DNA of 64,000 nt from assembly GCA_024679065.1 (NCBI GenBank), contig JAGIQG010000012.1:66030001-66094000 (forward strand), read 5' to 3'. A program made the position numbers and the translations under genes. Each line of letters begins with the position of its first letter. Within the stretch, counting starts at the first letter, position 1. Of the stretch, positions 1 to 38,000 are shown piece after piece. This stretch comes from Sphyrna mokarran (Eukaryota). A model generated the notes under the pieces. The model made no database searches and had not been told where the DNA came from. It worked only from the letters and a program-made list of their open reading frames with translations.

Positions 1-16
1 GAGAGTACTTGCCTGG

Positions 17-305
17 GGTGGCACAGTGGGTAGCACTGCTGCCTCACAGCGCCAAGGACCCAAGTTTGATTCTTGGCTTGGATCACTGTCCACATGGGGA
101 CTTTACACCTTCACCCCAAGTCTTTGTGGGTTTCTTCCAGGTGTGTTGGTTTCCTCCCACAGTCCTAAGATGTACAGGTTAGATGGATTGGCCATGCTAA
201 ATTCTGCCTCAGTGTACCCTAACAGGTGACGGAGTACGGCAATTTTCATAGTAACCTCGTTGCAGTGTTAATGTAAGCCTACTTGTGATGCTAATAAATA
301 AAGTT
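17..305 (+). mobile_element. tRNA-derived V-SINE/HE1-type SINE
   Basis: A-box-like GGTGGCACAGTGGGTAGCAC head, GGTTTCCTCCCACAGTCC core, AAGCCTACTTGTGA..AATAAATAAA tail; several homologous copies in the window. Confidence 0.85.
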
Positions 306-860
306 TGAAAACTATTATGACTAGTCTCTATCAAACCAAAATCCTAATCAGTTTAGTAATTTGCTTTCAGTTCCATGAGCTTCAACTTGAACTGACAGAA
401 ACTTTGTCAAAGGTTGCCTTGAAATCTACAAAAATAACATCCTTAAATTTTCTCTTCTCTCCTAACTTAATCATGTATTGGAGAAAAAAAAATCTATTGT
501 ATTTGTTGGGCCTTAACTGGCCATTACAGATCCATGCTGTCTCTTTGATCAGCTGAACGTTTTCACGTTGTTAACAAGCCTGTAATTCTTTGGTTTTCCT
601 CTGTAATCTTTACTTAAATGGCAGAGTGGCATGTGCAGTTTTCCAATTTGAAAGGCCAGATCCAAAATCATGAGAAGTTTGTATATGCCTTCACCATAGA
701 CAATGTTTTCACTTTTTAAAACCTTGGAGTGGAAACATGTCTGGTTCTGGGGATTTTCTACTCTTTGCTACCATTATTTTCACTATTACTGTCACCTTAT
801 TTTCATTTTTCAGTGATCTCATTTTGAATTTTTTTGTGTCCCTGCTCCTGATTTGTTGAC
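306..860 (-). mobile_element. old CR1-like LINE RT fragment
   Basis: The reverse strand resembles decayed CR1 ORF2 (aaaatccccagaaccagac..., ...gatgttatttttgtagatttcaaggcaacctttgacaaag, i.e. the DV+FLDF.KAFDKV motif); heavily mutated. Confidence 0.55.
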
Positions 861-2286
861 TTGGAATATCTGGCATGCTCAAAATGCAGGCGATTAAGAA
901 CTGTAGCTAATCTTTGTACACTTTAAATAGAGATGTACATTACAAACATTGACTTCCTAAGCCAATACAAATGAATCCCCAATTAACGCCTGCCACCTGC
1001 ATACAATTATACAGTTAATAATTACAATCTATTACAGTTAACGGATTTCTTTCTTGCTAAATAAAAAATTAGAGTGAATGTGTGTAACCAAAATTTCAAA
1101 ACAAATTAAATCAAATGTCTCCATATGCTGCACAAAACCCTGCACAGCAAGGCATCCTCCCTAAAAATTTTGACAATAGGCACTTCCTTTTGCAAAACAA
1201 TTTGACAGTTGATGACTTGCATCCACCCATTTAATTTTAGATATTTCCTTTCCCGCCAATATTTGTCACAAATCAGCAAGGTCAGTTTGTAACCTTTCTT
1301 GCTCATGTATTTCATACAGTGTGCATTATCACAATAGGAATGGTTATATCATAGCATTCAATTAGTATATACTATTGCCCAGAATTGGAGACTTCACTCT
1401 AACATCGGTAACATCCATTTGTTGTTTCAAACAATCAGCCTTTCATTAAGTTTCTAAGTCCGACCAGTATCTTTTCCTACATGCCCCACAATTATTGGAT
1501 CCTTCCATTCGTTGGAGCTTTCTACAATATATGTCACTCCAATAGCCACGCTGAGCAATTGGTCTTTGGATGTGATAATACCCTGATGGAGGCAGTTGCA
1601 GATCCACTGTCTTCCAAAAATATTTGCTGTATCACACTTCATGTCAAATTTAATTTGTGCCTGTCAAAAGAAGGTTTACTCAACAGCATAGGTACCTCTC
1701 TGGAGAACCGCATTCATATTTAGAAAATGGCTTCCCCTGGGGATTTTAAATGGATTTAGGACATATTTTCATGGCCTCAATGTTTCCATCAAAACCTTAA
1801 AGCAAGTATTCCTTGAATATTTCTTATCTCTCTGATAATCCTCAATACTTAGTGAATGAAGATAATGTTCAAATGTCTGCCCCACATACTGTTGAAGTGC
1901 AAGTACTATCATGTATTGCACAGTTAAATGACTGACATGTTTAATTTGTTTGGATTCATCACTTTCTTCACCCTCTGCCTCAGAGTTCGTCACGTATCAT
2001 TTTGGGAACCTTGCGTTTTTGCTTTGGGCTGCTCATTGTATTTGAGATAACACTGCAAAAATGTATTAACTGTTGTTTCATGTTTACATTCAGCCATTGT
2101 TTTTATTCAAATGTTGTCTTCTGCTGTAATAGTCGACCTCATTCTGCCTGCCTTTAATCCTTCTATTGGATTGACACCTATGTCGATTTTGTACCACTTC
2201 TAAATCTAGCAATCAAGTCTTCTACTCTGTCTCACCATGGCATATCTTGTGTTTGGTGAAGGCTGAAGGAAATTAGTGTTCTCAGG

Positions 2287-3763
2287 TTACGTCTTTACGT
2301 TTTACGTTTTTTACATTTTCGTCGTTGGTTACGGGTATGGTGCCGGAAGACTGGAGGATAGCGAATGTGGTCCCATTGTTCAAGAAGGGGAAGAGAAACT
2401 TTCCGGGGAATTATAGGCTGGTGAGTCTTCTGTTGTGGGCAAAGTATTGGAGAGAATTATTAGGAATAGGATTTATAGTTATTTAGAGAGAAATGAATTG
2501 ATTGGGGATAGTCAGCATGGTTTTGTGAAGGGTAGGTCGTGCCTTACTAACCTTACTGAGTTTTTTGAAAAAGTGACCAAAGAGGTGGATGGGGGTAAGG
2601 CGGTTGATGTGGTATATATGGACTTTAGTAAGGCGTTCGATAAGGTGGCCCATGGAAGCTTCTGCAGAAAATGCAGATGTATGGGATTGAGGGTGATTTA
2701 GCTAATTGGATTAGGAATTGGCTAGCAGATAGAAGACAGAGGGTGGTGGTTGATGGGAGATATTCATCGTGGAGTTCGGTTACAAGTGGTGTACCTCAGG
2801 GATCTGTTTTGGGGCCCCTGCTGTTTGTAATTTTTATAAATGATCTGGATGAGGGTATTGAAGGATGGATTAGTAAATTTGCGGATGACACCAAAGTCGG
2901 AGGAGTGGTAGATAGTGAAGAGGGGTGTTATAGTTTGCAGAGAGACTTGGACAAGTTGCAGAGCTGGGCCGAGAGGTGGCAAATGGAGTTTAATGTGGAA
3001 AAGTGTGAGGTAATTCACTTTGGCAGGAATAACAAGTGTGTAGAGTATAGGGCTAATGGTAGGACTCTTAATAGTGTTGATGAACAGAGGGATCTTGGTG
3101 TATATGTGCATAGATCCCTGAAAGTTGGCAATCAAGTTGATAAGGTTGTTAAGAAGGCATACGGAGTCTTAGCTTTTATTGGTAGGGGGATTGAATTTCG
3201 GAGCCGCAACGTCATGTTGCAACTGTACAAAACTCTAGTGCGGCCGCACTTGGAGTATTGTGTGCAGTTCTGGTCCCCACATTATAAGAAAGATGTGGAG
3301 ACATTGGAGAGGGTACAGAGGAGGTTTACCAGGATGTTGCCTGGTTTGGAAGGCAGGTCTTATGAAGAGAGGCTGAGAGATTTGAGGTTGTTTTCGTTAG
3401 AAAGAAGGCGGGTAAGAGGAGACCTTATTGAGACATATAAGATGATTAGAGGTTTAGATAGGGTGGGCAGTGATATCCTTTTTCCTAGGATGGAGAAAGC
3501 TAGCATGAGGGGACATAGCTTTAAATTAAGGGGTGGTGGTTTTAGGACAGATGTCAGAGGTACCCAGAGGGTGGTAAGGGTATGGAATGCCTTGCCTGCG
3601 TCAGTTGTAGATGCGCCAAATTTGGTGGCGTTTAAGAGGTTAGTAGATAAGTTTATGGATGAAAGGGGAATGGTTCAGGTTAGAGGGTCACTGCTTGTTC
3701 CTAATTGGTCGGCACAACATTGAAGGCCGAAGGGCCTGTTCTGCGCCGTAATGTTCTATGTTC
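2287..3763 (+). mobile_element. young 5'-truncated CR1 LINE (RT domain + 3'UTR)
   Basis: ORFs 2435-2701 and 2671-3723 (SQHGFVKGRSCLTNL, YMDFSKAFDKV, GVPQGSVLGP, KFADDTK) joined by one frameshift; GGCCGAAGGGCC stem and GTTCTATGTTC tail; TCAGG duplication at 2282-2286 and 3762-3766. Confidence 0.95.
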
Positions 3764-4789: not shown

Positions 4790-4915
4790 GCTATTTATAA
4801 AAGCATTTGGTTTACTAATGTCCTTTAGAGGAGGAAATCTGCTGTCCTTACTTGGTTTGGCCTACATTGGTTGATTCTCAACTTGCACCCCCCGCCCCAT
4901 TCAGATAAATACAAT
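4790..4915 (+). mobile_element. fragment of the tRNA-headed SINE/LINE 5' body (same family as 36002-36354 and 23602-23873)
   Basis: TGGTTTACTAATGTCCTTTAGAGGAGGAAATCTGCTGTCCTTAC matches the reverse complement of 23660-23706. Confidence 0.7.
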
Positions 4916-11034: not shown

Positions 11035-14000
11035 GTATGTATTGACATCTAATACTGACAAATTCCATTTATATAGCATCTCCGAGGTAGTAAAGCATCT
11101 GGAGATTGTGACAAATACAATAAATTTACTTTATATAAGCTTGCTGCCATTGAAATTGCAGACCACTAGGGTCAAGAGCCAGAGGACACCAATTTTGAGG
11201 TAATTGGCAAAAGAAGCAGTAGAGACATGAGAAAACCTTTACACAATGAGTGATTGGAATCTGACATGTGCTGTATGTGATTGTTTTGAAATTTGATAAT
11301 TATCTGTATGAAGAAATTTGCAGAGCTACCAGGAAAATGAGATTAACTGAGTAGTTCTTGCAGGTAATTGGCACGAATAGGATGAACTAAAGGGCTACTT
11401 TCTTCTGTAATGTAACCATTCTGTGATTCCATGACAAAATGGTTTTGATCCCTAAATAAACCAACAGAAACATTTTAAGAATTGAATAAGAATCAAAATT
11501 AACAATATGTATTGAATTCTTTTTATCATTGGATATGTTTCTGAATCACTTAAATTTGTTTCATTCACTTCATGTGCAGCTATTTGCCTTAATTGTTGTA
11601 GTTTTTTTCATTTTCACTAAGGTTGTATGCATTAAATTTCACTGCTGGTTCTAAAAGCTTATAGCTGGAGAAAGGATTTGGTTCAAAATGCTGGAAAATC
11701 TCAGCAGTTCATCATGACTCAAAGTTGGCTCTGTTCTCTCCACAGATGCTGTCAAACCTGCTGAGATTTTCCCGCATTTTCTGTTTTTATTTAAGATTCC
11801 AGCGTCCACGTTTTTTTTTGCCTTATTAAAGGATTTGTTTTTGAATAGATAGATATCCATTGCATAAACTTTGCAAATTTGCAAGCCTTTTTTTTATTAA
11901 CTTTTTTCAGTAACGTGGTAGCTCTAATTAATGGGTCAACAAAAGCTTAACATTACCAGTTTAAAGAAAAGAAAAACTCATTAATCCGATTGCTTTGTCT
12001 GTAAAGGAAAACGGATGTCTGGTCAATACGATTGGGTTTTACGCCTCTGAACTCAGAACAGAAGCTTTAAATGGACATATGGACAAGGTTTATTCTATGT
12101 GTAAGTACTGTAATGTCCAGCACAACTACCTTTTTTAATCAGACTTTTTAAACATGTTACAAATATTGTGATATATAGTGAGTTTGATTTGGCTATTTTA
12201 TAAAAAGTATTGATCTTGAACATGAGATGAAGATTTCCTTAGAGGTACTCCTGCTCAGCTGAGATTTCCTCTGCATGTCTGGTGAAGTTACGATGTAGAG
12301 ATGCCGGTGCTGGACTGGGGTAAACTCAGTAAGAGGTCTGACAACATCAATTTTAAATCCAACTGATTTATTTGATAGTAGACTTGCTAGCTTTCAGCCT
12401 TTGTAGCCTTTGTCAGGCGAATGATGAAGGCTACAAAGGCTGAAAGCTAGCAAGTCTACTTTCAAATAAATCGGTTGGATTTAAAATTGGTGTTGTCAGA
12501 CCTCTTACTAGTGAAGTTACAACAGTAGAGCAGCAGGAGAAAAATGCACCCTCTAGGATTTTGCTACTTGTTATGATGCAAGTAATAAAATAATCAAAAA
12601 CACAGAACTGGTACTGACATTTTATTTGACTGTGATGTATTAGCTTGTGAATATAACTTGGAACTTTTAATAAAAAAAAAGACTGATCGGTTGATTAAAA
12701 TTACACCATAAAAATATGTAGCATTTTTAAAAAATTGACAAGGAATCTGATGTATTTGATATTATAATCTACATATGAGAGTCAAACTATGCCAATGCAG
12801 GTTCATGATATTTTTCTAATAGTATCTATGGAAGTTGCTATACAGCTGCTGCTTTTCTAATATGCTGCTGGGCTTACAATGCAGTTTGTGCCCTTATCAC
12901 CTTATCAACAACAGTATGAAGATGGATGAATAGAATATTCTCCTATTATAATTTCTTCATTGAAAATAAAATAGCACATTCTGAAATGAATTTGATGTTG
13001 ACTGTTTTAAATTTGTTATTTTGCTGAATCTGTGGTTTACACTTCTCCCTTGGCAGTGTCATCGCCGACAAATCCTGCAGTGGATTTAAGTAGTTTCAGA
13101 GGCAGTCTTATTTTAGGATTTAAAAGGTAAGTTGTTTGTATACGTTATTTCAGAAAAAAACTCTAGCATTTGTACAAATGTTTTACAGTTGAGGAGTCCA
13201 TTAATACTATTATTGATTTGATTGATTTGGTTACATTGAAGTAATGGGACTGTGTAAATACTTGCTTTGCAATCAAATATTCCACCAATTACTTAGCAGA
13301 AATTGTTTCTATTAGGGCCCCATCTGTAGCAAAACCAACATTGACTGACTACTGAAATGTGCTTTTTACATTTACCTAGCAATTACAATACCACGCTCCA
13401 GTGAAGCACGCGTATTTTAAATTTCATATTTTTAAATGTTGTTTGGTCAATCATTCAGGTATTCTAAATGGTGCAACCTCTGGCATGGCTGCTTTTTGTA
13501 TTTTCTATAGTAATATGTTAACATGTTAATGACAACTCCGATTCATTTAGTCTGAATTTCTTTATTCACTAATATATATATCTCTGCTACCCATCTAATG
13601 AATTTTGGATCAAAGATTTCTGTGCTTGATGGCATTCTTGCTGTATCAACTCAGTCTTCCATAGAATAGGCTCTGAATAACTCAGGCCAGGTGTATGCAG
13701 CAATGAAGTTGAATGTTTGTTCTGGTGAACTGAATTGCATGTTGGTTTCTTGGTAATTTGATAACTCTTAAGTGAAATGTCTCTGCCATAAAGGCAAGTG
13801 GCCCAGTGACTAGCACTGCTGCCTCATGGTTTGATTTTCAGCTTGGATCATTGTCAGTGCAGAATCACCATGTTCTCCCCGTGTCTGTGGGTTTCCTCCC
13901 ACATGTCCAAAAGGCGTGTTGGTTAGGTGCATTGGCCATGCCTAATTCTCCCTCAGTGTACCCGAACAGGCTCTGATGTGTGGTGACTAGAGGAATTTCA

Positions 14001-17000: not shown

Positions 17001-20000
17001 AATTGAAATATGATTCTTTATGTTCTGCTGCCCCCTGCAGGTCTAAAGACATTGATTTCCTCGCCAAGGTAAGTGCTAACAAATAAATTCCCTTGGCTGC
17101 ATTACAGCAGTGTACGCTTTAAATATCAATTTCTTGTTTTCATCTTTGAAATGTGTAAAATTTTAAGAGACATTAAAAGCCTTTTCTGCATGTAAATTTT
17201 CTTCTGCCTTTTAATAAGTCATTGACTCTTGTTATGAAAAGGTGTACTATTTAAATGGATTGCTTGTAACCCTTTGGTACTTTCTTCTGTAATTAATTTA
17301 AAACTGACATGCACCAAAACATTATTTTAAGCATTGTCTTTTTAAAAACATTGCCATTAACTCAGTATTAGGATGGCCAAATATATTTTTGTTAGTAAGG
17401 AAGTGCCTGTCCTTGGAAGATGTTCACATTTTGTTGGGTTTTATTTTCGAAAGCAAGTTTAGCTATTGAGCTTGTTCTGTGAGCATTTTACAGATGAAAT
17501 GCCACAATATACTGTTGATTAATACCTTTATAGAAAAGTGCTTTGTTATTTTGAGGATACAATTTCAAATACTGCTTGTTCTTGTGTTCCTCTATCACCT
17601 ACAATATATTATTATTTTTTCTTCTCAGATAACGGAATTGTTGTACAAAGATGAACGTTATTGTCAGAATCCACCAGGACCGTCTGGTAGTGTTTCAATT
17701 TCCTTGATTGTAACTCGTCCACAAATCCGTTCTATCTAATGATGGGGCTCGAAGGATTACAGGAGTAACACTGATTGCTTTTTTTTTAAAGTGAAATTTT
17801 TAAAGTGTGTGGTCAGAAAAGCTTCAAGTATCTTTTCGCTCCATTGAGTTTTCTTATTAATCAAAAAGTTCAGTTGCTTTTGTATTGGTAGCTTTTTGAT
17901 AATCTTAATTTTAAATAAGAAATTGATGGGTTTACTGAGAAGCAATAAGTGTTTGTGCCAAATATTGATGATGCAGTTATGATATATTGGAAGTATGTTC
18001 CTGTGCATCATGAGTTTTTTTGTCTTCTATTTAGCATTCTTTGCACTGAATTGTTTTGTCGTGTATGCTACTAAAGCATCACAATCCACATGCCTCATTG
18101 ATTGTTGCCATTTTCGACACTCGAACCTGAGCTTTTATAAATGATTTGTGTAAGATTAATCTTGATAATGCAACAATCTCAATTTGTGGCATGATTATCT
18201 TTTTATTTCCTTTCTTGCAGAAGCTGTTGGCTATTTTCTTTATAACTTGATTGACAGCATGAGTGACTCTGAGGTGCAGGCCAAGGAGGAGCATTTGAGA
18301 CAATACTTCCATCAGTTGAACAAGATGGTACCATTTCATTCTAGCCACATAATGCATGTCACATATGACATGTATCTATTATTCTTAAAAATGCTACTTT
18401 TAAGTACACGATATCTCATTTAATGACCTGGCTGGAATTGTATAAATAAATTACATTTCAAGTTATTCAGTTACAGAATTTCCACACATTTCTTTCAGTA
18501 GCATTTAATTTAAACTTATGTTTCTTGCAGGATATAGTAATCCCAGCAACTATCTACAGAGGAATTAGAAATTTGTTGGATGCTTACCATGTCCCTGAGT
18601 TGATCAAGGTAGTTTATGATAGTCTTATCTTTTCCTTCATGTACGCATTTTTTTTCTACCAGTGATGTGCTATCAAGTACTGATATTGTACAGTTTTACA
18701 TATCTTTCCAAACTTGTATTCTACATAGTGGATCAGGAAACAATGGCTGAATAAGTTAGTGCACCACAGGACTGGTCACTGATTAAAGAAAGGATTTGGT
18801 TTATTGTGATGTCCCTTGTGGTGAATAGCTTGTGTCCAATCCCTATCTTCGTTTATCGTTGAAGAGCAGATCCTTGACAGTCTTCTGACATATATGAACC
18901 CAAAGAAGTGACACAATTTTTGAGAGAAGGCAACAAATTAGGAATGGAAGAGAGGCAGAATCGCCACTTCTTACATTTAATCACCTTAAAGTCCACTTTG
19001 TCCTTGGCTAGACTGTTGTGTAGACTAGGTTTCTGCATTACTTCTGATACTACTGTTGTGAAAAATGAGGTTCATATACTTGACATGGGTCCATCCTGAA
19101 AGGCACTCAGCTGGTATAAATAATGTAAAAATGTCCTTTTGTATACGGAACAAATCTGGCTAACATAGTGGCTCTTAAATTCCAAATCAACCCAACCTGA
19201 CAGCCGAAAGTTATTAACCCACCTGAACTAATGCCTGTGTCTCTATGCATTTATGAAATGTTTGATATCTCGGACCAGCCTGGTAATTAGGACTGACATA
19301 GTAACATTTTTTTTCAGCAATGAAGAGTATAATAATTTTTGAAAACAGTTTTCTCTCTCCTGATAATGGACTTACTTTGCGTTAAGTATATGGTCATAAT
19401 TAGTTTCAGGGCCAATCAGAACAATATGTAGCTCTCCTGTGTCACCTAAGAACTGTACTTCATCTAAAACCTAATGTTTTAATATTGCTGATTTTGAAGG
19501 CTTTTGAGGTGGCATTACTTGAATCCTATGTACCAATATCCAGTCAGTATTATTATTCCTGGATCAATAACCAGGCTTCTCCCAGATGCTGTGGTTATTT
19601 TTTTACTTATTTTTATGGGGTCCGGACATTGCTGGCTAGGCCGACGTTTATTGTCTGTCTTTAATTGCCATTGAGGAAGTGACGATGAGCTGACTTCTTG
19701 AACTGCTGGAGGCCATGTGATGTAGGTACACCTCCTGTGCCGTTAGGAAGTGTGTTCCTGGATTTTGACCCAGAGGCAGTGAAGGAACAGTAATATATTT
19801 CCAAGTCAGGATAGTGAAAACTTAGAGGGGAACTTACAGGTGGTGGTGTTCCCATGTATCTGTTGTTCTTGCTCTAGATGGTAGCAGTTCATGCATTTGG
19901 AAACTGCTGCCAAAGGAATCCTAGTGAGTTCCTGCAATACATCTTGTAGATGGTACACGCTGCTGCTGCTGAGGGCAGTACGGTGACACAATGGTTAGTA

Positions 20001-23000
20001 CTGCTGCCTCTCAGCAGCAGAGACCAGCTTGTGTCACTGTCTGTATAGAATTTGCACATGCTCTACATGTTTGAGTTTCCTCTGGGTGCTCCAATTTCCT
20101 CCCACAGTCTGAAAGATGTGCTGATGACGTGCTTTGGCCATGTTAAATTCTCCTCAGGGTATCCGAACAGGCACCGGAGTGTGGCGACTATGGGATTTTC
20201 ACAATAACTGCTTGCAGTGTTAATGTAATTGTACTTATTATTAAATAAGTAAACTTAATAAACTGGTGATGGAAGAGGTGCCAGTTAAGCAACTGCTTTG
20301 TCCTGGGTGATGTTGACCTTGAGTGTTTTCAAAGCTGTGCTTTTCCAGGCAAGTAGAGAGTGTTCCATCAGATTTCTGATTTTTGTGAATGTCAGGGGGC
20401 AATGGTTAGATTCTCTCTCATTAGAGGTGGTTGTTGCCTAACACTTGTGAGGTGCGAATGCTGATTACCACTTGTTGGACTGAGCCTGGATATTGTCTAG
20501 ATCTTACTGCATTTGGATATGGACTGCTGGAGCATCTGAGAAATGACACGTGGTGCTAAGCATTGTGCAGCTATCAGTGAACATTCCCACTTCTGATCAT
20601 TTGATAGAAGGAAGGTCATTGAAGCAGCTGAAGATGGTTTGCTCAAGGACACTACCCTGAGAAACTCCTGAAGTGATGTCCTGGAACTGAGATGGTTGGC
20701 CCATAATCATCGCAACCGTCTTCCTTTCTGCTAGGTATGACTCTGGCCAGTGGAGAGTTTTCTGCCTAATTTCCATTGACTCCACTTTTGCCAGGGCTCC
20801 TTGCTGCCACACTTGGTGAAATGCTGCCTTGATGTCATGCACAGCCACTTGTGCTCCAACCTCTGGAATTTAGCTCCTTTTATCCATGTTTGAATCAAAG
20901 CTGTAATAATGTCAGGAGCTGAATGACCCTGGCAGAATTCCAAATGTCAGTGAACAAGTTATTGTTAAATAAATGCCACTTGATGACACTGTTGGTGACA
21001 CTGATCCCTTCCAGCACTTTACCGATGATCAAGAGTAAACTGAGATGTAATTGGATAGTTGGGTTTGTTCTTTTTGTGGACTGGACATACTCGGGCAATT
21101 TTGCAATTGCCAAATAGATGCCAGTGTTATAACTCTTTTGGAATAGCTTAGCATGTCCTGGAGTACTTTTGCTGGGAAATTGCCTTCGCAGTATCCAGTG
21201 CATTCAGTTGTTTTTTGGAATGAATCAAATTGACTGAAGACTGACACCTGTGATGCTAAGAACTGCCAGAGGAGGCTGAAATGACTGAAGATCATTGTGA
21301 ATGCTTCAGCTTTATCTTCTGCACAGATGAGCTAGGCACCTCCATCTTTCAGGTGAGGGATTTGTGGAGCCTCCCCCTCCTTTGAGTTGTTTAATTGTCC
21401 ACCACCATTCATGACTGGATGTGGCAGGACTGCACAGCTTAGGTCTGATCCATTGTTTATGGAATCGCTTGGCTCTATATATTACTTGTTCCTTATAGCA
21501 GTCCTGTAGCTTCACCAGGCTAGCACCCCATGTTTAGGTATGCATGGTGTTGCTCCTGCATTCTTTAGACCAGGGTTGATCCTCTAGCTTAGTAGTAATG
21601 GTGCAGTGGGGACTATGCCAGGCCATGAGGTTACAGATTGTGATAGAGTTCAATTCTGCTACTGCTGATGGCCCACAATACCTTATGGATGCCCAGTGTT
21701 GAGTTGATAGATCTGTTTGAAATCTATACCATTTAGTATGCTGGTAGTGTTTCACTAAGTGTGAAGATGGAACTTTGTCAGTACAGGGACTGTGTTAACA
21801 TAGAACATTACAGCGCAGAACAGGCCCTTCGGCCTTCGATGTTGCGCCGACCAATTCGGAACAAGCAGTGACCCTCTAACCTAAACCATTCCCCTTTCAT
21901 CCATGTTGTGGTCACTCTTACTGATTGCTGTCATGGACAGCTGCATCTGAAGCAGGTAAATTGGTGAGGGTGAAGTCAAGTATGTTTTTTTCCTCTGTTA
22001 CTGGTTCCCACATTATTTTCCAGACAGATGTAGCAGTTATGCCCTTTAGGATTTTGATCTGTAGAGATGCTACCAAGCCACTCCTGCTGATGAACAAGCC
22101 CCTATCAAGAGTAATTCTGCACCCTTGCCACCCTCAGTGTTTCCTCCAAGTGATGTTCAACATGGAGGGAATAGCGATTCATCAGCTGGAGGGAGTCAGG
22201 TGGGTGATGATGTGATGTGGTTGTCAGCTGAAGGTTCCTGGAATTCATGGAGTCGAAAGTCAATGTTGAGGACTCTCAACACAACTCCCTTCCAACTGTA
22301 TGCTGCTCTGCAGAGTATATCCAGCTGGTGGGACAGGACACATCAGTGATGGTGGTAGTGGTATCTGAGACATTGTCTGTAAGACATGATTCCACAAGTA
22401 TAATAATGTCATGCTGTTGCTTGACTAGTTTATGAGACAGCTGTCCCAATTTTGGCATAAGTTCCCAGATGTTAGTAAGGAGGACTTTGACGGGGCTGGA
22501 ATTGTTGTTTTTGGTACCTAGCTCAATCCCTGCTGGTCCATTTTGTGACAATACTGTGGTATTGTTGCTATATTTTGTATTTAAGGTGGGATTGCTTTGA
22601 GACAGTGTTTTGTTACAAGAGTTGATTTGGCTGGTAAATGCTGCAGATGCTAAGAATGCAGGCTGATAATTGATTTTAGCTAGGAATGTGTTACTTTGGA
22701 TGAATCTTTGGTTTATTTAGATTCTCCTGAGGTTTGAGTAGCATTTTAATTAAGTTAATTGACAGAGATGGTCATGCAATTAATAGGAGGAGCTAAGCTT
22801 GCAGGAAGGAAAGTGTTTCAGTTTCATTTTTAAATTCCAGCAGTTGCTGCTGGGCTGCCAGAGGAAAGCAGTGCCTTTCTCTCTTGCTCTCATTCTCTCA
22901 CTCTCCTATGCCCCCAGCGGTGTTCTGAAAGTTTCACGCCTCGCTTCTTCCTTCCCTCCTCTCCCCTTCCCTCCCTTCCTCCAGAAGTGTTCTGAAAGTT

Positions 23001-26000
23001 TCAAGGTAGGGAAATGTTTCCTTGATTGGAATTCATAGTGATAAGTTAGCAATTCAGACTTGCATCTTATCGTGTTTGAGCATTGTTCAATTGTTAAAGG
23101 TTAAGCTCATTCACTTGTTATAACTTAACTATATTGTTAATAAAGTTTGTTCTAATAAAAACTTTCTGCGTGTCAAGATCATGCCTGGAGTGAAACACCT
23201 TATCCTCACATGGTGCCAAAATTGAAAATTGTTGGGGACTCATTTGACTTCATAATATACATTGGAGCTTCTGAACAGTCTGGCTTAATTCCTTATTGGC
23301 TTTCTCGCAATTTGATACAACTGACTGGCTTAAGTTTATTTATCAGTGTCACAAGGAGGCTTACTTTAACACTGCAATGAAGTTACTGTGAAAATCCTCT
23401 AGTCACCATACTCCGCCTGTTCAGAGACACTGAAGGAGAATTTAGCATGACCTAACCAGCATACCTTCCAGACCATAGGAGGAATCGGAGCACCTGGGGG
23501 AAACCCATGCAGATATGGGGAGAATGTGTAAACTCTGCACAGACGATGATCCAACCCAAGAATTGAACCCAGGTCCCTGTGAGGCAGCAGTGTTAACCAG
23601 TTGGGCATTTAAGAGTCAACCTCATTCCTGTGAGGCTGGGATCATATGTAGGCTCGACCAGATGAGGACAGCAGATGTCCTTCTCTAGTAGACATTAGTG
23701 AACTAGGTGTCCTTTTTTTCTTGGTGACAATTGACAATGGTTTCATGGTCATCAATACACTTTTAATTGAGTTCAAGTTCTACCATCTGCTGTGGTCTGA
23801 TTCCAACTGGGCACTATCATGGATCTCTAGATTACTAGTCCAGTGACAATACTATTGCAGCACTGCCTCCCCCAATTTCCCTCTTGGAAGAGGCAGGATG
23901 AAGTTAATAATAAATAGCATCCAAAACAAGAGCCATCACTTGCATCAGTGTTGACTTGGAGATTTCCTTTTGCTGGGAGGAACCAGTGAGATGAGAAATT
24001 TGAGTAAAATTACTGTACAGCTCCTTGGGTGAATCTTTCCTTTACTCTTCCGAATTGACTTAAAAGTTCCACAAATAAGGATGCCTGAACTTTGAAGAAA
24101 TTTAAAATCAAATTTTGAAATGTATTACTCTTTATAATGGCATTCAAACCCCATTCCCCTACATGCCCCCCCTTTTCACTCTATGCCAGCATGTACAATC
24201 GAATGAAAAGCATCAAATTCTTAAGTTTCTAAATATAATAACTGTTATTTTTCAGGATGTCATTCATTTGGTGAATGAACAGGATAAGCTGACTGCTGCT
24301 GACCTCCCAAAAGTGAGTTAAGAAGTTTAGATTGAAAATGAAGCTTTTTTAAAAAAAAAGCATGTTCGGTTGTAAATTAAAGTCTGGTTTAATTAGAATG
24401 TTAGTCCAACAGAGTAATGAGGCCAATTTATTCATGCAGAGTGCAGTTATTCTTAGGTAGATCATCAACTAGCCTGAAGGTGCCTGGTGTTATGTTACTT
24501 TTCATTTGTCTGAGCATATTCAACTCAGTTTGTTTGTCTGTGCATTTTGTATGTGTTTTCATTCTCCCCTTCCTTGTCCTGACTGTAATGCCTGAAACTC
24601 TGATGCCTAAGATGCTTGTAGCTAGTTACCAAAACTACCAGAGATAATGCAGGTGTTACAGCGTCTCTGATTTATGTTCTAAAGTGGATGACACTACACG
24701 CTTCGTTTAGGATACAAATTGTGAACCAAACAAGTTGCCACTTTGGGTATCTTGATATTTTCCAGAGAAAATGCCTAATCGCTTTTTTGTGGGGATTTGA
24801 TGCCTTCGATGTATTGTCCCAAAGAAAACACTTCTTTATTAACTAGACAATGTGTACTGTTGCCTCAAATATATGGATATATAAGCAGTTTTATATTTCT
24901 TGCCCACTGAATTAAAATACAGATGTTGGGGTGGTGAATGTGTTTTGTTTTTGCAACACCGATATAGCATCTCTATCATGATAGAACGTCCCAAAGCACT
25001 TCCGTAACAAAGCAAAATACCATATAATAATGAGCCACATCAGGAGATATTAGGTCAGATGACCAAAAGCTTAGCCAAAAAGGTAGAAGTAGGGAAGCAG
25101 GTGGAGACCACTGAAATTGGAAATCTCAAGAGGACATAAATAACTGAGGATTGTAAGGTCAGGAATACCAGAGCAGGGAGGATTTCAAAACAAGGATGAG
25201 AATGTTCAAATCAAGACTGTGTGATTAAGAGCCAGTGCAGATCAGTTGGCATAGCACAGGAGCAGATGTTTTAAATTGCATGAATTTTATAGAAAATGTA
25301 ATATGGGAGACCAGCAAGGAGCGTTTTGGAATCAAACTTTGAGGTGATTAAGGCATGAAGAAATGTTTCTGCAACAGATGAGCTGACCCGGGCAAAGTTG
25401 AATGATGTTGCAGAGGTGTCAGTTGGTTGTTTTAATATTAGCATGAATCTGAGATCAGAAGCTCACCTCTGGGTCAACTGTGACACGAATGTTATGAACA
25501 GGCTTTTTAAATCTGTGTTGCCAGGAATAGGAATAGAATGGATAGCTATAGAACAGAGTTTGGAGATTGAAAGTGATGAGTCTTCCTGTTGTCTAGTTTA
25601 AAAAAAAAGTTGGGGTTTAATTAAGGATTCAAATTATTTATTGTAACATAAATTACTATTTTTTAATGTTAAAAGAAGTCCCTAACGTGCATGAGTTTGT
25701 TTTATAGGGATCTGAGGCAAAAATTGCTGCTCTAGAAACAAAATTGGCAGAACTAAAAATGGAGAACAAGCCTATTGGAGAGACGTTGAAGCAACTGATC
25801 CTATTGCTTTGTGGGACTGAGGTAAGAATGGTAATTTCTTATGACCGGATGAGGAGTTGAATGGCTCCCCTCTTGGTCTTATCATTTGAATGCAACAGGT
25901 TTTTTGCTTATACAAGTTATACTTGCCAATTCAGTGAGTACTCAATGAAGTATCAATAGAGTACGTTTTCTTGCGAAAAAGGGTTTGTTTTATAAATCGA

Positions 26001-29000
26001 TCAAAACAAAATAATAGAATATGTACTGACATTCTCACTCATGCCCACGCTGATGCTTTCAAAGTTCTCTGATACAAATGCTACAATAGTTTGACCAAAT
26101 TAGAGTCCACAAGAAAGGAAAAGAGAATGCAATCTGTGGTTTGGTGATTTGACTAGCATCCAGCTGAATTCAATGGTCTGTGCTTCTAATGTAAAGATGT
26201 AAATGGCTAAGTTGATAGTTATTCAGGAGAATGTCATGCTCTGTCCATCTCTTCTAAGAAATCTTTGCCTGCAGCATTGCTGGGCAATTACAATTAGCAA
26301 CCAAGCTTGAAGTTTATCAAGTGAATTCAAGAAAAAAAAGAAGGCACGAGGACTCCAACTACATTTGTCTTCATCAGCTGTGTTTCCTCAGTTCTCTGAG
26401 AAAATCTCTGCTTACAGCATTCAAAAGGTTGGCTTGCCTGTGACTGCCCTCTCCAAATGACCAGTACTTTAAACTTGGTTGTGTATTCCCAGGTAAGGTT
26501 TGGGAATTTCCCTTCTTAACCAGGTTTCCTTTAATTATATTTAATGGTTTGTCTCATAGATAAGGAGTAGGAGGAGTAGGCTGCTCTGCCATTCAATAAG
26601 ATCATGGCTGAAAAATCAAAAATTGGAACCTCAACTCCACATTCTTACCTACCTGCGCCTCCTACCCTGATAACCTTTCATGCCCTTATTAATGAAGAAT
26701 CCATTTAATGCTCTCAAAAATAGTCAAAGACACCGCTTCTATTGCTTTTTAAGGAAGAGTTTTCCAGGGACACTCAATCCTCAGAAATTTCTCGCCCATT
26801 CGGTGTTAAATGAGGAACGCCTCCTTTTTGAACAATCCCCAATTGTTTGGGTATCATGGCTTTGGCTAATGAAATAGGAAATATGGTTCATTTGTACTCC
26901 CCTGAGGATATTGTCTTTGGGTCTTTGCAGACATATGTACTTAATTTCAATGGGTTTGAAATGTGCAGTAATACAAAGTAAATAACCATCTTGACTGTTA
27001 GTTCAAGTCACTTTAGTCTGTTTTATAATGAAATCTTTTTAAATAATGATGCCATGTCAAGTGCACTCTTCCTGAAGGCAGATCCTGGCTCATTTCTGTT
27101 GATGCTCCATCTTGAGTTTTCTTGTAAGTTTTTGACAGTGGTGGTTTGCCAAGGACAGGTCAAGCTTTTTGTCGACTCAATTGGTCAAGGCATTGCCACG
27201 GGACAAACTAGGAATAGCGAGCATGCAGATCAGAGTAGCACCATAAGCCTATGTTTGATTCTTATTCGAGCTGGGATAGGCTTAGGCCCTGCTTCCTTGA
27301 CCTGTCCTTGGCAAGCCACCACTGTCAAAAACTTACAAGAAAACTCAAGATGGAGCATCAACAGAAATGAGCCAGGATCTGCTTTCAGGAAGAGCGCACA
27401 TGACATGGCATTATTATTTAAAACAATTTCATTATAAAACAGACTAAAGTGACTTGAACTAACAGTCAAGATGGTTATTTACTTTGTATTACTGTTCATT
27501 GGTGTATTCTCTGTGGCAATGCCTGTCCCAATCAGAGTCTACTTGCCAACCAATCAGCATTTTAATATGCATTATAAATTATTTTTCCTTTTACAACTGG
27601 CATTCTCAGAAATCTGTTGCTGAGTAGAAGACGAAAAGCTTTGACAGCATATCTCTTTTCAACAATACTGAAGTTCTGTTCCACCAAACCACTATTTCTG
27701 TATCATTCTATCCAAGTTCATTTCTTAGGATAGTAGGATGGTTAATGAAAGCAGTATTGTGGTAATCTGTGTTGGTCATTGAAGGATTGGTTGAGGCAAG
27801 GCAATTGGAAAAATTGGGTAAATATTTGAATCAGAGGAAGACAGTTTTGATGAGAAAGCAGGGCAGTGTGTAAAATAGAGGAAATGGATTTGGATTGCCA
27901 AATCTATTCAGAGATCTGATGAATCATTGCACTACTAACTACTGCAGTGCATTCCACTGAATTCTTTCTGGAACCAATCTTGGAAGTGCATCAACATGTT
28001 GGACTATGGAGTTTTGAATGATATCCCAGATCCTTGATAGAAAGCTACTGATTTAAAATGTACAACTCTAGGTCATTGCCAAGTGGAAACCAGGTGTTTT
28101 CTCATAGGAAAATAAATTTTAAAAAAATGCTAAGTTCGCAATGTATTGAACTATAATTTTCTATGAACTATGTTGATGGTTTGCAATAATCCTCATTTCC
28201 TCTCACTGGGCAGTAAGAGGCAAAGCATTGAATGGGCTGCTCTGACAATGTTGAATAAAAACCTGGAGATATTGGAGTAAAAGCTCTGCTGAGGGCCATA
28301 TACGAAGTGCATGTCACAAGCAGACTTTGGGCCGTATAATGATTGTACCGGTGAAGGAGGTAATGAAATGCCAGCTCACAGTTTTTCTCTTTGGAGTTCA
28401 TCACAAGCTTCTTCAAAATCCTTAAATCACATAGACTTCTCTATTCCCTTTTAATTCAATTTGTAAGATGGATCAAGTGGAACTTTGGAAATCCAGGCTG
28501 ACTGCCCTCATTCAATTTCTTATTCTCCAGAGGCTTAATAATTTCATTGTAGACTCCAGTAGTGTACAAACGTGTGAAATAAGATTAACCAGTGTATAAT
28601 TCTAAGCTTAATCCTGTTTACTTTGAGTTGCTTCTGCCATCTTCCAGTGTTTTGACATGATTTTTCTTTCCAAATAACTTTTGCCATATTTTGGTCTCCT
28701 TTTAGATACTTTACATTCTGATTTTTTGACATCAATGTTTGATCTTTATTTCATATATTTGGAAGCATTTATATACAGAGGGCATCACACTTAGTTTTAT
28801 TGATGCATTGATGACCAACACCAATTTAACAATATAAATCTGATCTGCACCTGTAGCATCCAAGTTCTGAAATGATGTTAAGCTGCTTTTGAAATGTTTT
28901 CAAAGAGTCTAGGATGTATTGGTGGCACAGTGGTTAGTACTGCTGCCTCTCAGTGTCAGAGACCTGGGTTCAGTTCCTGGTTTGCGGCACAGTCTGGCCA

Positions 29001-32000
29001 AGTCTGCACCTTCTCCCCGTGTCTGTGTGGGTTTCTTCCGGGTGCTCCGGTTTCCTCCCACTGTCTGAAAGATGCAGTGGTTAGATGCATTGGCCATATT
29101 AAATTCTCCTTCAATATACCCAAACAGACGTCAGAGTGTAGTGACTAAAGGATTTTCATAGTTACTTCATTGCAGTGTTAATATAAGCCTGGTTGTGACT
29201 AATAAATAAACTTTAAAAGATTCATTTTCCTTTTGATTTTTGAATCGGTTTTAGAAAGTCATACTTTTCTATTCCAAAAAGATAAAGCCGTTTCTTCTCA
29301 AATCCCTATTCATAGAGAAGCCCAGAAAACATCTTGCCCTATTTGCAAAAAAAAATGACTAAAAATGTTATAATTCCAATCGGAAACCAGTTGATCATTC
29401 TTTTTGCTTAGGCCCTTGTTCAAGCCAGGGGAGAATGCAATCTTACATCTTAAACATTCATTGTGTGCAAATACAAGATACGTTGCAGCAACTCACCAAA
29501 CCTCTTGTGATGGTATTTTCCAAACCTGCAATCACTACTTAACACAAGGATAGTAGGTGGAAATACCACCATCTGCAAGTTCCCCAAGTCACATTCCATC
29601 CTGACTTGGAAACGTATCACTGTTCCTTTTCTGTTACTGGGTCAAATACCTGGAATTCTATTCCTAATAGCACTGTTGGTGTCCATCTGTTCTGCTTGTC
29701 ACCAGAGCTCTCCACTCACCTACAAAGGGGCAAACCCTGAAAACTAGTGGGTTTACTATCAAATAAACTTGTTGAACTTTAACCTGGTGTTGTGAGACTT
29801 CTTACAGTGTACACCTACACCAGATGGACTTGCAGTGGATCAAGAAGCCAGCTCGCTAGCACCTTCTTGACAGCAATTAGGAATGGGCAATAAATACTGG
29901 CCTAGCCAGTGACGCCTGCATTTCACAAATGAGTATTATTGAAAAAAGGTTTGCACAAAGCCATTTCATCAAAAAGTAAAGCGCTAAATACTCTTTATTG
30001 GTTAAAGTCACAATGTTGGTTACACAGATACTCCATACCATGAGAGCAATAGAATTATCTGGACTGTTCTTCTCAGAGCAGATAAGGTTAAGAAATGATC
30101 CATTGACTTTTCCAAACTAATGAGAGTTTCTGATGGAGAAAAATTATTCCCTGTGGTAATTGGATCAGTAACGAAAAACAGTAGACTCAACATTATTGGG
30201 AAAAGATTTGTAAGAGTGATGCAACTTTTTTCCAACTTGAGTTGCAGTGAACTGGAGCACAACTGGAAAACTGGTGGAAGCTAATTCCTTAAATAATTTT
30301 AAAAAGGAATTGGACTGGTGCATGATGATGAGGAACTCAAAAGGTTTTGGATAAAAAGCAGGAATATCTGAGAAAGCATGGCTGCTTTTTCTAGGAGCCA
30401 GCACAAGCACACCGTGTCAAATAGTTGCCTCCTGGGTAGCAAATCATTACGAGATAAACATATTTTAAAAATTGAAGGTTATACAGGCAATGTAGTATAT
30501 CACTGAATAAACTTTGAACATTAACTACAGCAGTGATCAGGGAGTTTGATGTTGCAAATTGGTGGGATTGTGTTGAGTAATTGTTTGCACGGCTGAAAAT
30601 TTAATTTTGAATTCTCTTTGCTTTGAATAGCTGGTTTCTTGAATAGCTGATGCTTGTGTGTGTGATTAACAACAGTCAGAACTTCTGTGGTTCTCCACCC
30701 CTGGACCCCTTTTCTGATCTTAATTTCTTCTAATGTTAACTGATCTTTGTCTGCAGTTGGCTGATACACCCTCATTGACCAGCTCACATTTCTTCCTTTT
30801 AACTCATTGTTCTTCCAGACTGTACCTGGTAAAGGCACTTTTCAAGATCAATCTTATAGAAGAAAGCGAGCCTGAATGAGCAAATAGAAACTGATAGTTT
30901 CATAAAGCCAAAAAGAGACAGCTTTGTTCCCCATAGCCAAATATCCATTACTACTTCTCCTGACGAACGATTAATAAACTAACAGAAGAATGTGCAATCT
31001 TGCACATTTGTTTTCATTTTAAAGACAGGGCTCTCTTCAATCATTCACTTAATTAGAGTGAATGACATTGTTGCCAGAAGACCTCATTGACCATCTACAA
31101 ATTTTCCCTCACAGCCTATAAATGTGGGATCTTGTGGTTGCTGTTGAGTTGCTGGAACAGGGATTTCCTCCGGAAAATCAGTTTGTGTCTATTTGATTTT
31201 AAGAACCATATACTTAGTAATTTTGCATTTCTTGAATATTTTTTCCTGCCCAATGGAAAGAAACAGGTGTTCAGTTTCCTCCTGGATGCTTTCCTCCATG
31301 TCTTGGGCCAGGCATTTCCAGTTATTGGTAGGGATGTTGTATTTCTGGAAGGTGGCTTTGAGGGTGTCCTTGAAGCATTTCTTTGCCCTCTGGGGCTCGT
31401 GTACAGTGCCAAAGTTCCAAATGGAGCGTTTGGTTTGGAAGTCTTGTGTCAGGCGAGCGATGTGGTTCACCCAGCGGAGCTGATCAAGTGTAGTCGATGC
31501 TTCGGTGTTGGCCTGAGAAAGAACATTTGCAGGATTTAGTGCAGACAATGCTGATGACACTTTGCCTGGTGTATGTTTTCTGAACCATATAGGATGACAG
31601 GTGTCTATATTGTTCTGTAGACCATGAGTTTGGTGCTGGATCTTCAGACACTCTTCTTCAGGCAGTCGATCACTGTGCTGGAACACTGAAGGCAGTGTTG
31701 AACCTCATCATCGATGTTTCTTCGTGGTGGCTGTAGGCTCCCAAGGTATGGAAAATGGACCATATTGTCCAAAATCACATTGAGATTTTGATATCATAGG
31801 GACAGTGTTGTGTGACAGGGTAGGTTGGTAGAGGACCTTTGTCTTAGATGGATGTTTAGTGTAAGGCCCATGTTGTTGTACACCTCAGTGAAGGTGTTGA
31901 TAATGACCTGGAGCTCCGTCTTAGTGCTTGCAGAGATGCAAACATTGAATTACAGCAAGCAGATAATGACAGAGGATGAGACAGCCTGTGTTCGTGTGCC

Positions 32001-35000: not shown

Positions 35001-38000
35001 CTTTCAATGGAATTAGCATTTCTGGATCTTCTAAAATCACCATTACTGTTCACCAGGAACTGAACTGGACTAGTCATATACATACTAAGGCTCCATCAAC
35101 TACACTTCCCAAAGTCACACACCATCCTAACTTGTAACTGTACTATCATTCCTTCACTGTTGCTGTGTCAAAATCCTGGAACTGAGATTATCTTTATTGT
35201 CTTAACAGCACTGTGGGTGTACATACATTACATTTACTGCAGTAGTTTGAGAAGGTAGCTCAGCACCACCTTCCCAAGGGAGACTTAGGGGCGTGTAATA
35301 AATGCTGGTTGAACTAGCAGCATCTGTGTCCTATGACCGAATAAAGAAAAACACTAATACCTCTTTCAACAAGAGTGTAACTTTTTCTAAGGTTTGCAGT
35401 GCAAAGCTAGAGTTGTTTCTCCTTGGAGAGAAGTGAAGATTCGATAGAGGAATACAGGATAATGACAGATAAAATGTTCCTAATAGTTGACAGTACAAGG
35501 ACTAGTGCAGTCAGATTTAAAGTTTTGGGCATCAATTTGGGGGTTGAGAGGAAGAACTTTTCTATACAGCAAATAGTGCAGAGTAATGACTTGGAACTAG
35601 CTGCCAACAAGGATGGTGGAAGACAAGGTTATTAATCATTTCAAAAGGATACTGGATAGGCTATTGAGAGAAATAAACTTGTAGGGTTAGTGGCATAGAT
35701 TGGATGATTGGGACTAACTGAATTATTCTCAAAGCTGACTTGAACTAAATAGGCTGAATGGCCTCCTCCTGTGCCATAATGATTGAGCAGCTCTTGCTAG
35801 TTCAGTGATTACTATTTGATTGCAATCTGCGGATACTTCAAACGCACCCTCTTGGAAACTGAGAGTAACTTCCAGATTTGTGTGTTTAACTGCACATATG
35901 TTGACTTCAGAAATTGCTGTGGATTCTGAAGAGCAAATGCTATGTTTCACTATTATTATCACTGCAAAGTATTAGTCAATGTTTAATCTCATTTTTTTTC
36001 TTGATTCGTTCATGGAATATTGCAGGCAAAGCCACTTTGCTCATTCCTAATTGCCCTTGAACTGAACATTTCAGATGCTAGTTAAGAATCGACCACATTG
36101 CTGTGGGCCTGGAGTTGCATGTAGACCAGATTAGGGTAGGAAACCTGCCGTTTTTGCCCAAAGAACGCTAATGAACCAGATGGGCCTTTTATGACAATTG
36201 AAGATAGGTTAATGGTTACCATTGCTGGCCTAGCTTTATGTTACAGATTTATTAAGTCCACCTTGGTAGTGTTTGAACCCATGTTCCCATTAGTCTAGGC
36301 CTCTGGAATTACTTGTCCAATGATGATATCACTATCACTATCGCCATCTCCCTCTAGTTGGTTTATTAGCTGCAATTGTTTTCAAAGTTTCATGCTTTAG
36401 TTGTAAATCTTCAGTGGGTTATAATGTCATTCTCCATGTAATTCTCTATATGAAGGAAAAATTATGAAGAACAGTGTTATGTCAAAGTTTATTACTCTTT
36501 TCCAGTGTATTTTGTAATTTGCAGTACTTGAAAGCATGTTTTCTATAATGATTAATGTCAGTGTAAGTGGTATCATGTTTATTTTTGAAGTCATAACTAT
36601 GTCTCATCCATCTTTTAGAAGTGTACACTAAATTGCGAGGAGCTCCCTTTTTACAAAGCAATAGAAGTGGAAACACAATATGCATGCACTATTTCCTTTT
36701 AACATTTTGTTTAATTTTATGATCAGTTTTCCAACCTCTGTTGTGATCATATGAACTTTGACAACGGACATTGGCAGGGTATTCAAAAAGGTTATTGGGA
36801 TTGTATTGCCAGGCGTAATATTTGAGCTAAATCTAATATTTCCCCACCCTACATCACTTTCCTAGCTAATATACTCTGTCAGAGAGTCGGTGCAGATTCG
36901 ATCGCCAAATGGTCTCCTCTGCACTGTTGGGATTCTGTGAAAATGTTCCCATGTACATTCGAGGTAATATAACTGGTTAAGTGCAGCTATATAAGAAATT
37001 GAGACATAGTCACAAGTTAATAGAATGATGTATATTTCATGTTCATTTATTTTGTTGTATTTAAACTGAAGAAGGAAAATGTTTTTCAGGAAATGCAATA
37101 TTCTGTTCATTGCAATGAGGGCCATAATTTAATTTTACTAAAAGTACATTAGAAGTATATTTATGTATTCAATTACTCAATACTTGTTCCAATAATTAGT
37201 ATTTGATATTTTCTGGCTGCTTAATTTCTTTTGAAAAGAAAATCTTCTGTTTTGCCAGTCATATTTTATCTTTAAAAACGTGATGTGAATCCATCTGCAT
37301 AATAATTAAAGGTATTAAATAGTAACAAAAACAGTCAAGGTTCCAGTGAGAGAGGAAATCTTAGACTTATTTTATATGGGCAATGCTATCTTCAGAAGAA
37401 CCACTTTCGTTCTCTTTCTAGAATATGCAAAAAGCCCTTGAAGTGAAAGCTCAGTATGAATCGGACATGGCTATCGGTGGCTATGCTGCACTAATAAATC
37501 TTTGCTGTCGACACGATAATGCAGAAGAGGCAATGAACCTGAAACAAGAAGTGTAAGTACACTAGTGCAGAAATATGTCAGGTTAATTTATGCTGATATA
37601 AGGACCTTCCTGAATTAAACAGGTAGAAATCTTTAGATTCCCTTCATAAAATCTTAATCAGGGCCTGTACCATGGATAAATTAAAAGTGAGAGTTGCTGC
37701 ACATTGATTTTTATGTAGCATGAAGTTGAGCGTTGTATTTTTGCAACATTTTGATGTACTAAATAAAACTCTGCTCAGTTGTGAAAAACTAACCTTGTCC
37801 TCCCTGTTCTGAAATTTAAGGGACCGTAAAGATTCGTCTGTTGCCCTTGACACAAATAAGTACTTGGCACTAGTGAGAGTCCTAGCCAAGCATGGTAAAT
37901 TAGAAGGTAAGCTGTCTGCTTGTGTAAACTAATTAGTTTTTTTTAAATCACAATTAAGCATTTACTGTAAAGTAAATGAGAATGTGACTTTATTTTGATG

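Follow-up and report, generated by a model that had tools for sequence, protein, structure and literature searches.

Regarding the LINEs of sharks and rays, the closest described system is elasmobranch Zenon (CarCar, HypSab, RhiTyp and ScyCan Zenon-1, and SquAca Zenon-1 to -3; PMC13343379, 2026), whose members are 2.9-3.3 kb in length, contain no ORF1 and terminate in an A tail, as does the element described here. Copies with an intact ORF2 have been published for the stingray (3/612) and the whale shark (1/1419) (PMC13343379 supplement). The main text of PMC13343379 contains 0 matches for tRNA, promoter or polymerase III; therefore, the head, the Pol III signature and the derivation of SINEs are not discussed there. 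Lepidopteran Zenon, together with its deletion derivative Persaeus, is likewise a LINE that spawns abundant short elements composed of its 5' and 3' ends (PMC6740152). Persaeus lacks both a Pol III promoter and any homology to tRNA (PMC6740152), whereas here both the parent and its derivatives are tRNA-headed. Among the short repeats of sharks, SacSINE1 and the Deu-SINEs (PMC5499810, PMC2746220, PMC7245038) also carry a tRNA head, and SacSINE1 is set apart by its description as a 463-bp element that has a Deu domain and ends in an L2 tail. Bipartite LINE-derived SINEs, for example Bov-tA (RTE, Vingi; PMC5786205), are built from the 5' part and the 3' part of a LINE, as are the SINEs here; in the Bov-tA type, the tRNA head was added afterwards to a deleted LINE, whereas here the autonomous element is already headed. 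Searches of the open-access literature turned up no account of a shark LINE that carries a tRNA head or is transcribed by Pol III. BovB, an autonomous LINE of a clade different from Zenon, reportedly carries SINE pieces at an end; neither transcription by Pol III nor purging of T runs is known to have been claimed for it.

Structure of the Zenon copy

In a 64,000-nucleotide stretch of Sphyrna mokarran DNA (contig JAGIQG010000012.1, positions 66,030,001 to 66,094,000; hereafter the window), positions 19596..23873 of the minus strand are a dead full-length copy of an elasmobranch Zenon LINE, interrupted by four nested insertions. All parts described in a sequence-only reading of this locus were located where it had placed them on the minus strand, and its judgment that the copy is dead agrees with the stops and frameshifts in the ORF. 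With the four insertions removed, the copy is colinear with positions 2-3292 of the family reconstruction (blastn, 73-83% identity per piece).

The minus-strand unit begins with a tRNA-like head (23789..23873), which starts with GGGGGAGGCAGTG at 23873 and contains a decayed A box (about 23862-23851), an anticodon-like arm CTGGA-CTAGTAA-TCTAG (23843-23827) and a B-box-like GTTGGAATC (23807-23799). The first part of the 5' UTR body (23601..23788), which is 95% identical between the old and young reconstructions and is not a Deu domain, is followed by an unrelated SINE (23331..23600, minus strand) that has several family members in the window and at whose insertion site the host element has lost about 15 nt. 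The end of the body, at 23319, is the commonest SINE breakpoint and lies with the first part of the linker in 23278..23330. A solo-LTR-like insertion bounded by TG...CA (22544..23277, minus strand) separates it from the second part of the linker (22489..22543, minus strand), which in the family codes for an Arg-rich extension that shares the reading frame of the endonuclease (EN) and has no in-frame ATG.

The APE endonuclease (21905..22488, minus strand) starts with KVLLTNIW at 22488, contains stops and frameshifts, and is assigned by Pfam PF14529 on a sister copy. It is followed by a plus-strand insertion (21797..21904), a younger repeat represented by its 108-nt end, with further occurrences at 3655-3763 and 53503-53608. 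The second ORF part (20264..21796, minus strand), comprising a linker and the broken reverse transcriptase (RT; Pfam RVT_1 on sister copies), reads MFTDS in place of the family MFADD and shows a gap of ~180 nt at 20386/20385, which is a single gap in the alignment with the reconstruction. Another unrelated SINE (19973..20263, plus strand), of the same family as 17-305 and 28921-29198, precedes the C-terminal region (19661..19972, minus strand; stop codon at 19663-19661). The 3' UTR (19596..19660, minus strand), which is common to the derived SINEs, contains AATAAA, a predicted stem-loop and an A-rich tail (about 19615-19597). Three of the four nested insertions have relatives elsewhere within the window.

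Family identity and subfamilies

The family is an elasmobranch Zenon LINE of 3.3 kb with a single EN-RT ORF, abundant in sharks and rays. Its membership in Zenon follows from the match to the seven published consensuses of five sharks and rays, all of which start with this head and keep its boxes with variants (PMC13343379 supplement). Visual comparison and exact short motifs show the first 400 nt, covering head, body and linker, to be the same, with no sequence difference that would separate the element here from the published members. The absence of an ORF1, which had been regarded as unusual in the sequence-only reading, is universal among Zenon elements (PMC13343379). The claim of a single EN-RT ORF behind a tRNA-like head was borne out by the family reconstruction, in which the head is followed by a 220-nt body, then by a single endonuclease-reverse transcriptase ORF and finally by an A-rich tail. 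In the young reconstruction, the EN begins at position 430 and 934 codons are open from its start; EN and RT domains are detected by Pfam in sister copies, and no intact copy was seen here.

A quick RT tree, containing no row labelled Zenon, placed the element in a clade apart from the CR1-type copy of this genome (SH-aLRT 98). The best protein matches include moth, brine shrimp, beetle and lancelet proteins; a word-indexed protein search gave only 4 distant matches, a metagenome scan gave 3 distant loci, and a viral scan gave no match. A profile of the head found nothing below E 1 in 80 invertebrate-type LINE loci.

Copies fall into an old and a young subfamily, which are 93% identical and not independent of each other. 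Head type tracks ORF type across 77 copies, themselves not independent (rho 0.58, p 3e-8); head and ORF co-evolved through the two subfamilies. The ORF was under purifying selection in the source lineage (dN/dS 0.21 between old and young, with CpG codons left out), and changes in the body are rarer than synonymous changes (10/220 vs 79/565, p 8e-5). The linker has too few changes to single out a reading frame under selection. Of 25 3' ends, most are A-rich after GAAT. Target-site duplications enclosing head plus tail, which the sequence-only reading had proposed to look for, were not found: none flanks the window copy, and the 25 ends, from copies 10-25% decayed, score like 600 mismatched pairings save two, one of which lies in a tandem repeat.

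The tRNA-like head and its junction

Both subfamily reconstructions contain an A box and a B box. ARAGORN called the head of the older reconstruction as an 88-nt tRNA-Thr(agt) at its default threshold and that of the young one at a 90% threshold; neither ARAGORN nor Rfam detected the decayed head of the window copy, and Rfam found no tRNA in 20 better-preserved copies. The proposed tRNA-Thr(AGT) is a candidate donor: it agrees with the ARAGORN call on the older head, but the younger subfamily does not have AGT in the anticodon-like loop, and among 20 isotypes of tRNA taken from this genome, Leu(AAG) gives the best alignment (z 7.0-7.6).

For the junction, 39 other copies were picked by endonuclease sequence alone and their 5' extent was then scored. 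The same tRNA-like head is reached by 19 of them, 14 of which begin within positions 1-13, while 12 end in the 220-nt body and 8 in the linker or EN; this split includes a hand correction for two chained neighboring SINEs, the script having given 21/11/7. No alternative 5' end occurs among the 39. Near-exact matches to the junction extend into the EN in 22 of 30 cases, and 3 of 29 copies selected by RT reach the head, the rest stopping earlier inside the element. A one-off event at this locus, in which a SINE landed by chance just ahead of a LINE lacking its 5' part, is extremely improbable; the window is crowded with nested repeats, and one such SINE-LINE adjacency does exist, at locus L101, but 31/39 of the EN-selected copies extend into the body or head found here. 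Moreover, 18 truncated copies show no other 5' end or ORF1 and have no other upstream sequence in common where they break off. As the identical join recurs in contigs of four other organisms and in the seven published consensuses, the chance explanation is refuted, and the join of head to EN is a feature of the family, as had been suggested.

Derived SINEs

The abundant SINEs here are the two ends of the LINE joined together, giving an element of about 393 nt with a Zenon tail. Their junctions recur at no fewer than four breakpoints (318>3221, about 290>3228, 338>3221 and 341-344>3151-3155), and SINE junctions are in excess (621 vs 30). The SINEs with this head thus look like deletion products of the LINE. 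The direction implied by the earlier term "SINE-LINE chimera" was accordingly not borne out, and by motif the body matches 0/3 SINE domains (Deu, Meta and UCON3). A tree of 62 heads, with little resolution, shows LINE and SINE heads mixed together. Identity of the body with the Deu domain or SacSINE1 was rejected (1/4 short Deu motifs of PMC7245038 Fig. S4, allowing up to one mismatch), and 0/3 short motifs of the Meta or UCON3 domains were found in it; a Deu-motif match is present elsewhere, at locus L167.

T-run avoidance and the transcribing polymerase

TTTT is absent from the 3.29-kb sense strand of both reconstructions, and T3 runs number 5 and 7 vs 22-23 expected, with normal A and G runs. 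When amino acids are held fixed, 3 T3 runs are seen vs 24 expected and 0 T4 runs vs 5.3 expected; TTVTT is observed 0 times vs 4.4 expected. A synonymous-site context test revealed 0/26 xTT codons before T vs 45/171 (p 0.0009), and 2/24 vs 34/175 in the old reconstruction, which is not significant (p 0.26). Across 79 related LINE ORFs, only 25-38% identical to the element and including no headless close relative, T4 is present in every one and T3 observed/expected is at least 0.68 (median 1.02), compared with 0.16 in the element. Eight long ORF pieces of younger LINEs (CR1) in this genome show no T-run depletion. Raw copies (160 pieces, 196 kb) contain 0.94 T4 per kb; simulated decay gives 0.95 from the reconstruction and 2.35 from a shuffled one. 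Depletion does not extend to pyrimidine tracts, AATAAA motifs, GT-rich tracts or splice donors. Taken by itself, the absence of T4 does not reach significance when compared with dinucleotide shuffles (P 0.09 and 0.15), a null under which C3 and G3 runs are mildly low too. The element is T-poor (20%), and the sole control of like composition (L284) contains a single T4 and leans weakly in the same direction. The T-run depletion is T-specific and strand-specific, and acts at synonymous sites of the ORF.

As a tRNA-like promoter is combined with a coding strand free of Pol III stop signals, the LINE is probably transcribed by Pol III from the internal A and B boxes of its head, and is likely a protein-coding element made by this polymerase. 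Pol III may read the element from end to end, its oligo-T terminators having been removed by selection. The RNA, being uncapped, would be translated without an in-frame AUG: none precedes the endonuclease in the reconstructions, and the body has no unusually stable, IRES-like fold (z -0.4 to -0.8). Target-primed reverse transcription is established for LINEs; here, the protein would bind the 3' tail and insert a copy by this reaction. The internal promoter would stay with full-length copies, and loss of any internal segment would yield a ready-made SINE, later outnumbering its parent.

Against Pol III stands the fact that its RNA is uncapped, and AATAAA occurs twice in the tail, as in a Pol II unit. 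LINEs are taken as Pol II transcripts (PMC5786205), and the element could be one of these, its head captured as a Pol II promoter or kept through exchange with SINEs, and T-runs avoided for other reasons, for example composition or the stability of the RNA. Translation is easier from a capped RNA, the AATAAA motifs (positions 3243 and 3285) are accompanied by a poly-A tail, and the same SINE junction is found with old and young heads (13/30 typed), which points to exchange. This explanation is nevertheless unlikely, as the depletion is specific to T and to one strand, lies at synonymous sites of the ORF, a part that the SINEs do not have, and is missing from the 79 related ORFs, and Pol II hazards are not depleted. 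Alternatively, Pol III may supply the template RNA while protein is provided in trans from capped Pol II read-through of other copies. Such a division of labor accounts for T-run avoidance, dispenses with translation of uncapped RNA and fits both the excess of SINE junctions and the many internally deleted copies. It is quite improbable, since the strong purifying selection seen on the ORF between the subfamilies is more easily maintained under cis preference, and the capped transcript would likewise lack an in-frame AUG. For the complete scenario built on Pol III, namely a 3.3-kb autonomous element transcribed end to end, purged of terminators synonymously, translated without cap or AUG, kept across sharks and rays and repeatedly giving birth to SINEs by deletion, the chances appear evenly balanced on the sequence evidence.

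Under the current division, LINEs are taken as Pol II transcripts and SINEs as Pol III transcripts. If Pol III transcription is true, this division would be broken by an autonomous element whose promoter is an internal tRNA-type one and whose ORF is free of terminators; the element would represent a natural case of protein made from Pol III RNA and a one-step route to SINE birth.

Family Identity and Architecture

The LINE that occupies the minus strand of the window from 23873 to 19596 belongs to a known family with a surprising and unremarked architecture, being a tRNA-headed, single-ORF Zenon LINE. Its best profile-search matches (moth, brine shrimp, beetle and lancelet, plus 3–4 kb contigs; ~30–41% identity) were grouped apart from the CR1-type copy of the Sphyrna mokarran genome in a quick tree. 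Zenon LINEs have been reported in five elasmobranchs, all lacking ORF1 and ending in a poly-A tail, and the supplement of that report provides seven elasmobranch consensuses of 2886–3314 nt (PMC13343379). As all seven begin with the same head, body and linker, the family is already on record as elasmobranch Zenon. These parts are absent from the first 400 characters of the three rows for hagfish and coelacanth in the same supplement. The main text of PMC13343379 contains zero matches for tRNA, promoter or polymerase III, and the head is unremarked there. No description of a tRNA-headed or Pol III shark LINE was found in a search of published papers.

The majority reconstruction of the family, built from genome copies in an older and a younger subfamily version, is 3.29 kb long. 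It comprises the tRNA-like head (positions 1–95), a body (up to 318), a linker (up to 429) and an ORF of 934 codons from 430, stop-free after CpG correction; the stop codon near 3234 is followed by a short 3′ UTR and an A tail. APE endonuclease (EN) and reverse transcriptase (RT) were detected in natural pieces by Pfam. The ORF frame is open for ~45 codons further upstream, where it is Arg-rich and without ATG, and the sole conserved linker ATG sits in a different frame. Comparable basic extensions are found in several homologous proteins.

All the parts described by the sequence-only reading, which had proposed a tRNA-like head and a ~250-nt body running almost at once into EN, with no room for ORF1, were located in the window. 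The insertion-free copy is colinear with positions 2 to 3292 of the reconstruction by alignment and is assigned to the older subfamily (ORF identity 83% to the older vs. 80% to the younger). It is dead: it has stops and frameshifts, lacks ~180 nt and carries a damaged RT motif. Its head was undetected by ARAGORN and by an Rfam search. Three of its four insertions have relatives at other sites in the window. The insertion at 22544–23277 (734 nt) is solo-LTR-like, with TG...CA ends, a GA-rich middle and possibly a decayed 4-nt duplication; one end also matches locus L009. Other stretches of this Zenon family, or of the SINEs related to it, lie at 29472–29935, 35112–35308, 36067–36216 and 4804–4867. 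The window also holds a MITE-like inverted repeat at 26960–27500 (205-nt arms, 96% complementary, 131 nt between) and a near-perfect palindrome at 12328–12509 (88-nt arms, 94%, 6-nt spacer).

The Head–EN Junction

A genome search by the EN piece alone gave 3216 candidates, 40 of which were scored, and 8 kb was taken around 39 non-window places. Mapped on the majority reconstruction, 19 of the 39 copies extend into the tRNA-like head, with 14 starting within positions 1–13; the 5′ break lies inside the body in 12, and the start falls in the linker or EN in 8. The automatic split was 21/11/7, and two loci were reassigned by hand owing to a separate adjacent SINE chained on. The junction proposed from a single copy is therefore repeated across the genome. 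For 18 of the 20 copies that stop short of the head, the upstream flanks have no sequence in common at the break, so no alternative 5′ end or ORF1 is apparent. Among RT-selected copies, 3 of 29 reach the head and the remainder end earlier within the element. A 33-nt body–linker pattern has 30 matches in the genome (control, 0), of which 22 continue into EN and five are short derivatives. Allowing at most one mismatch, it matches none of the 39 EN-selected loci, so that the family should be far larger than both samples. Body, linker and EN are also spanned by contigs of four other organisms. Enclosing target-site duplications, for which the sequence-only reading had proposed to look, were found at none of 25 ends. 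One full-length copy, L106, has its final 360 nt inverted relative to the remainder, and loci L107 and L129 (G000 C971) carry a tandem array of a short 3′-region piece (positions 3131–3186, ~72-nt period).

Origin of the Head and Body

The tRNA-Thr(AGT) origin first proposed is one candidate: the older-subfamily head was called as tRNA-Thr(agt) of 88 nt by ARAGORN at its default threshold, but both heads aligned best with Leu(AAG) among 20 isotypes from this genome, a sample outside which canonical Ser and most Leu isotypes fall. The younger head was accepted by ARAGORN at 90%, with a different loop. Identification of the body as a Deu domain was rejected, as only one of the four short Deu motifs given in PMC7245038 is present, and the related SINE is accordingly kept apart from SacSINE1, which is described as 463 bp long and ending in an L2 tail (PMC5499810, PMC2746220). 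The three Meta or UCON3 motifs looked for in the body are all absent.

Derived SINEs

SINE-size derivatives arose repeatedly. Position 318 is joined to 3221 in 621 near-exact matches, vs. 30 matches to the LINE junction; further recurrent joins are at about 290>3228, 338>3221 and 341–344>3151–3155, and 18 single joins represent larger deletion products. A similar lepidopteran Zenon derivative is described without a tRNA head or Pol III promoter, unlike the shark SINEs (PMC6740152), and in the account of PMC5786205 heads were joined to already deleted LINEs afterwards. Some short derivatives retain 20–26 nt of LINE-specific linker, which shows that the LINE was their source. At the main join the reverse direction could apply, with an older SINE donating its front end to the LINE.

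Which Polymerase

T runs have been purged from the element. Pol III terminates at four or more T, and no T4 run occurs in the 3.29 kb of either reconstruction. T3 runs number 5 and 7 in the two reconstructions vs. 22–23 expected, or 3 vs. 24 expected with amino acids held fixed; A runs occur at the expected number, and interrupted T runs are also missing. In the younger ORF, codons ending in TT before T amount to 0/26 vs. 45/171 (p 0.0009), and the same test in the older ORF was not significant. No depletion of pyrimidine tracts, AATAAA, GT-rich tracts or splice donors was found. The controls were 80 loci of related LINEs, drawn from genome bins and lying in DNA of invertebrate type; 79 have a long ORF. 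T3 observed/expected in these 79 ORFs has a median of 1.02 and a minimum of 0.68, vs. 0.16 in elasmobranch Zenon, and T4 is present in all 79. Many of the prokaryote genome bins (L283–L362) contain eukaryote-type LINE ORFs, likely from host DNA. The control ORFs of L284 and L353 have a single T4 run each and 5′ ends without the head (L284 stops at the contig end); a younger CR1-type LINE with a stop-free ORF of 898 codons (L046:1992–4685) also served as a control.

The element is probably transcribed by Pol III, with the protein translated from that same RNA. The T-run deficit is seen in both the reconstructions and raw genome copies, where it agrees with a decay simulation at rates of the analyst's choice, and is not shared by the 79 control ORFs. 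However, T4 absence by itself is not significant under dinucleotide shuffles, and a weak similar trend is seen in the closest T-poor control. AATAAA in the tail also speaks against Pol III; Pol II transcription is nevertheless unlikely given the deficit. Translation of such an RNA is without explanation, and the body has no unusual fold; provision of the protein in trans to a Pol III transcript appears slightly less likely still than Pol II transcription.

History of the Head and ORF

A second pattern with 59 genome matches revealed the older subfamily. The head and ORF have co-evolved over a long time: older heads are paired with older ORFs (rho 0.58, 77 copies), the ORF dN/dS between the older and younger reconstructions is 0.21, and the body is less changed than synonymous sites between them (p 8e-5). 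Taken together, this pairing and constraint show that the head was carried by a functional, evolving autonomous lineage.
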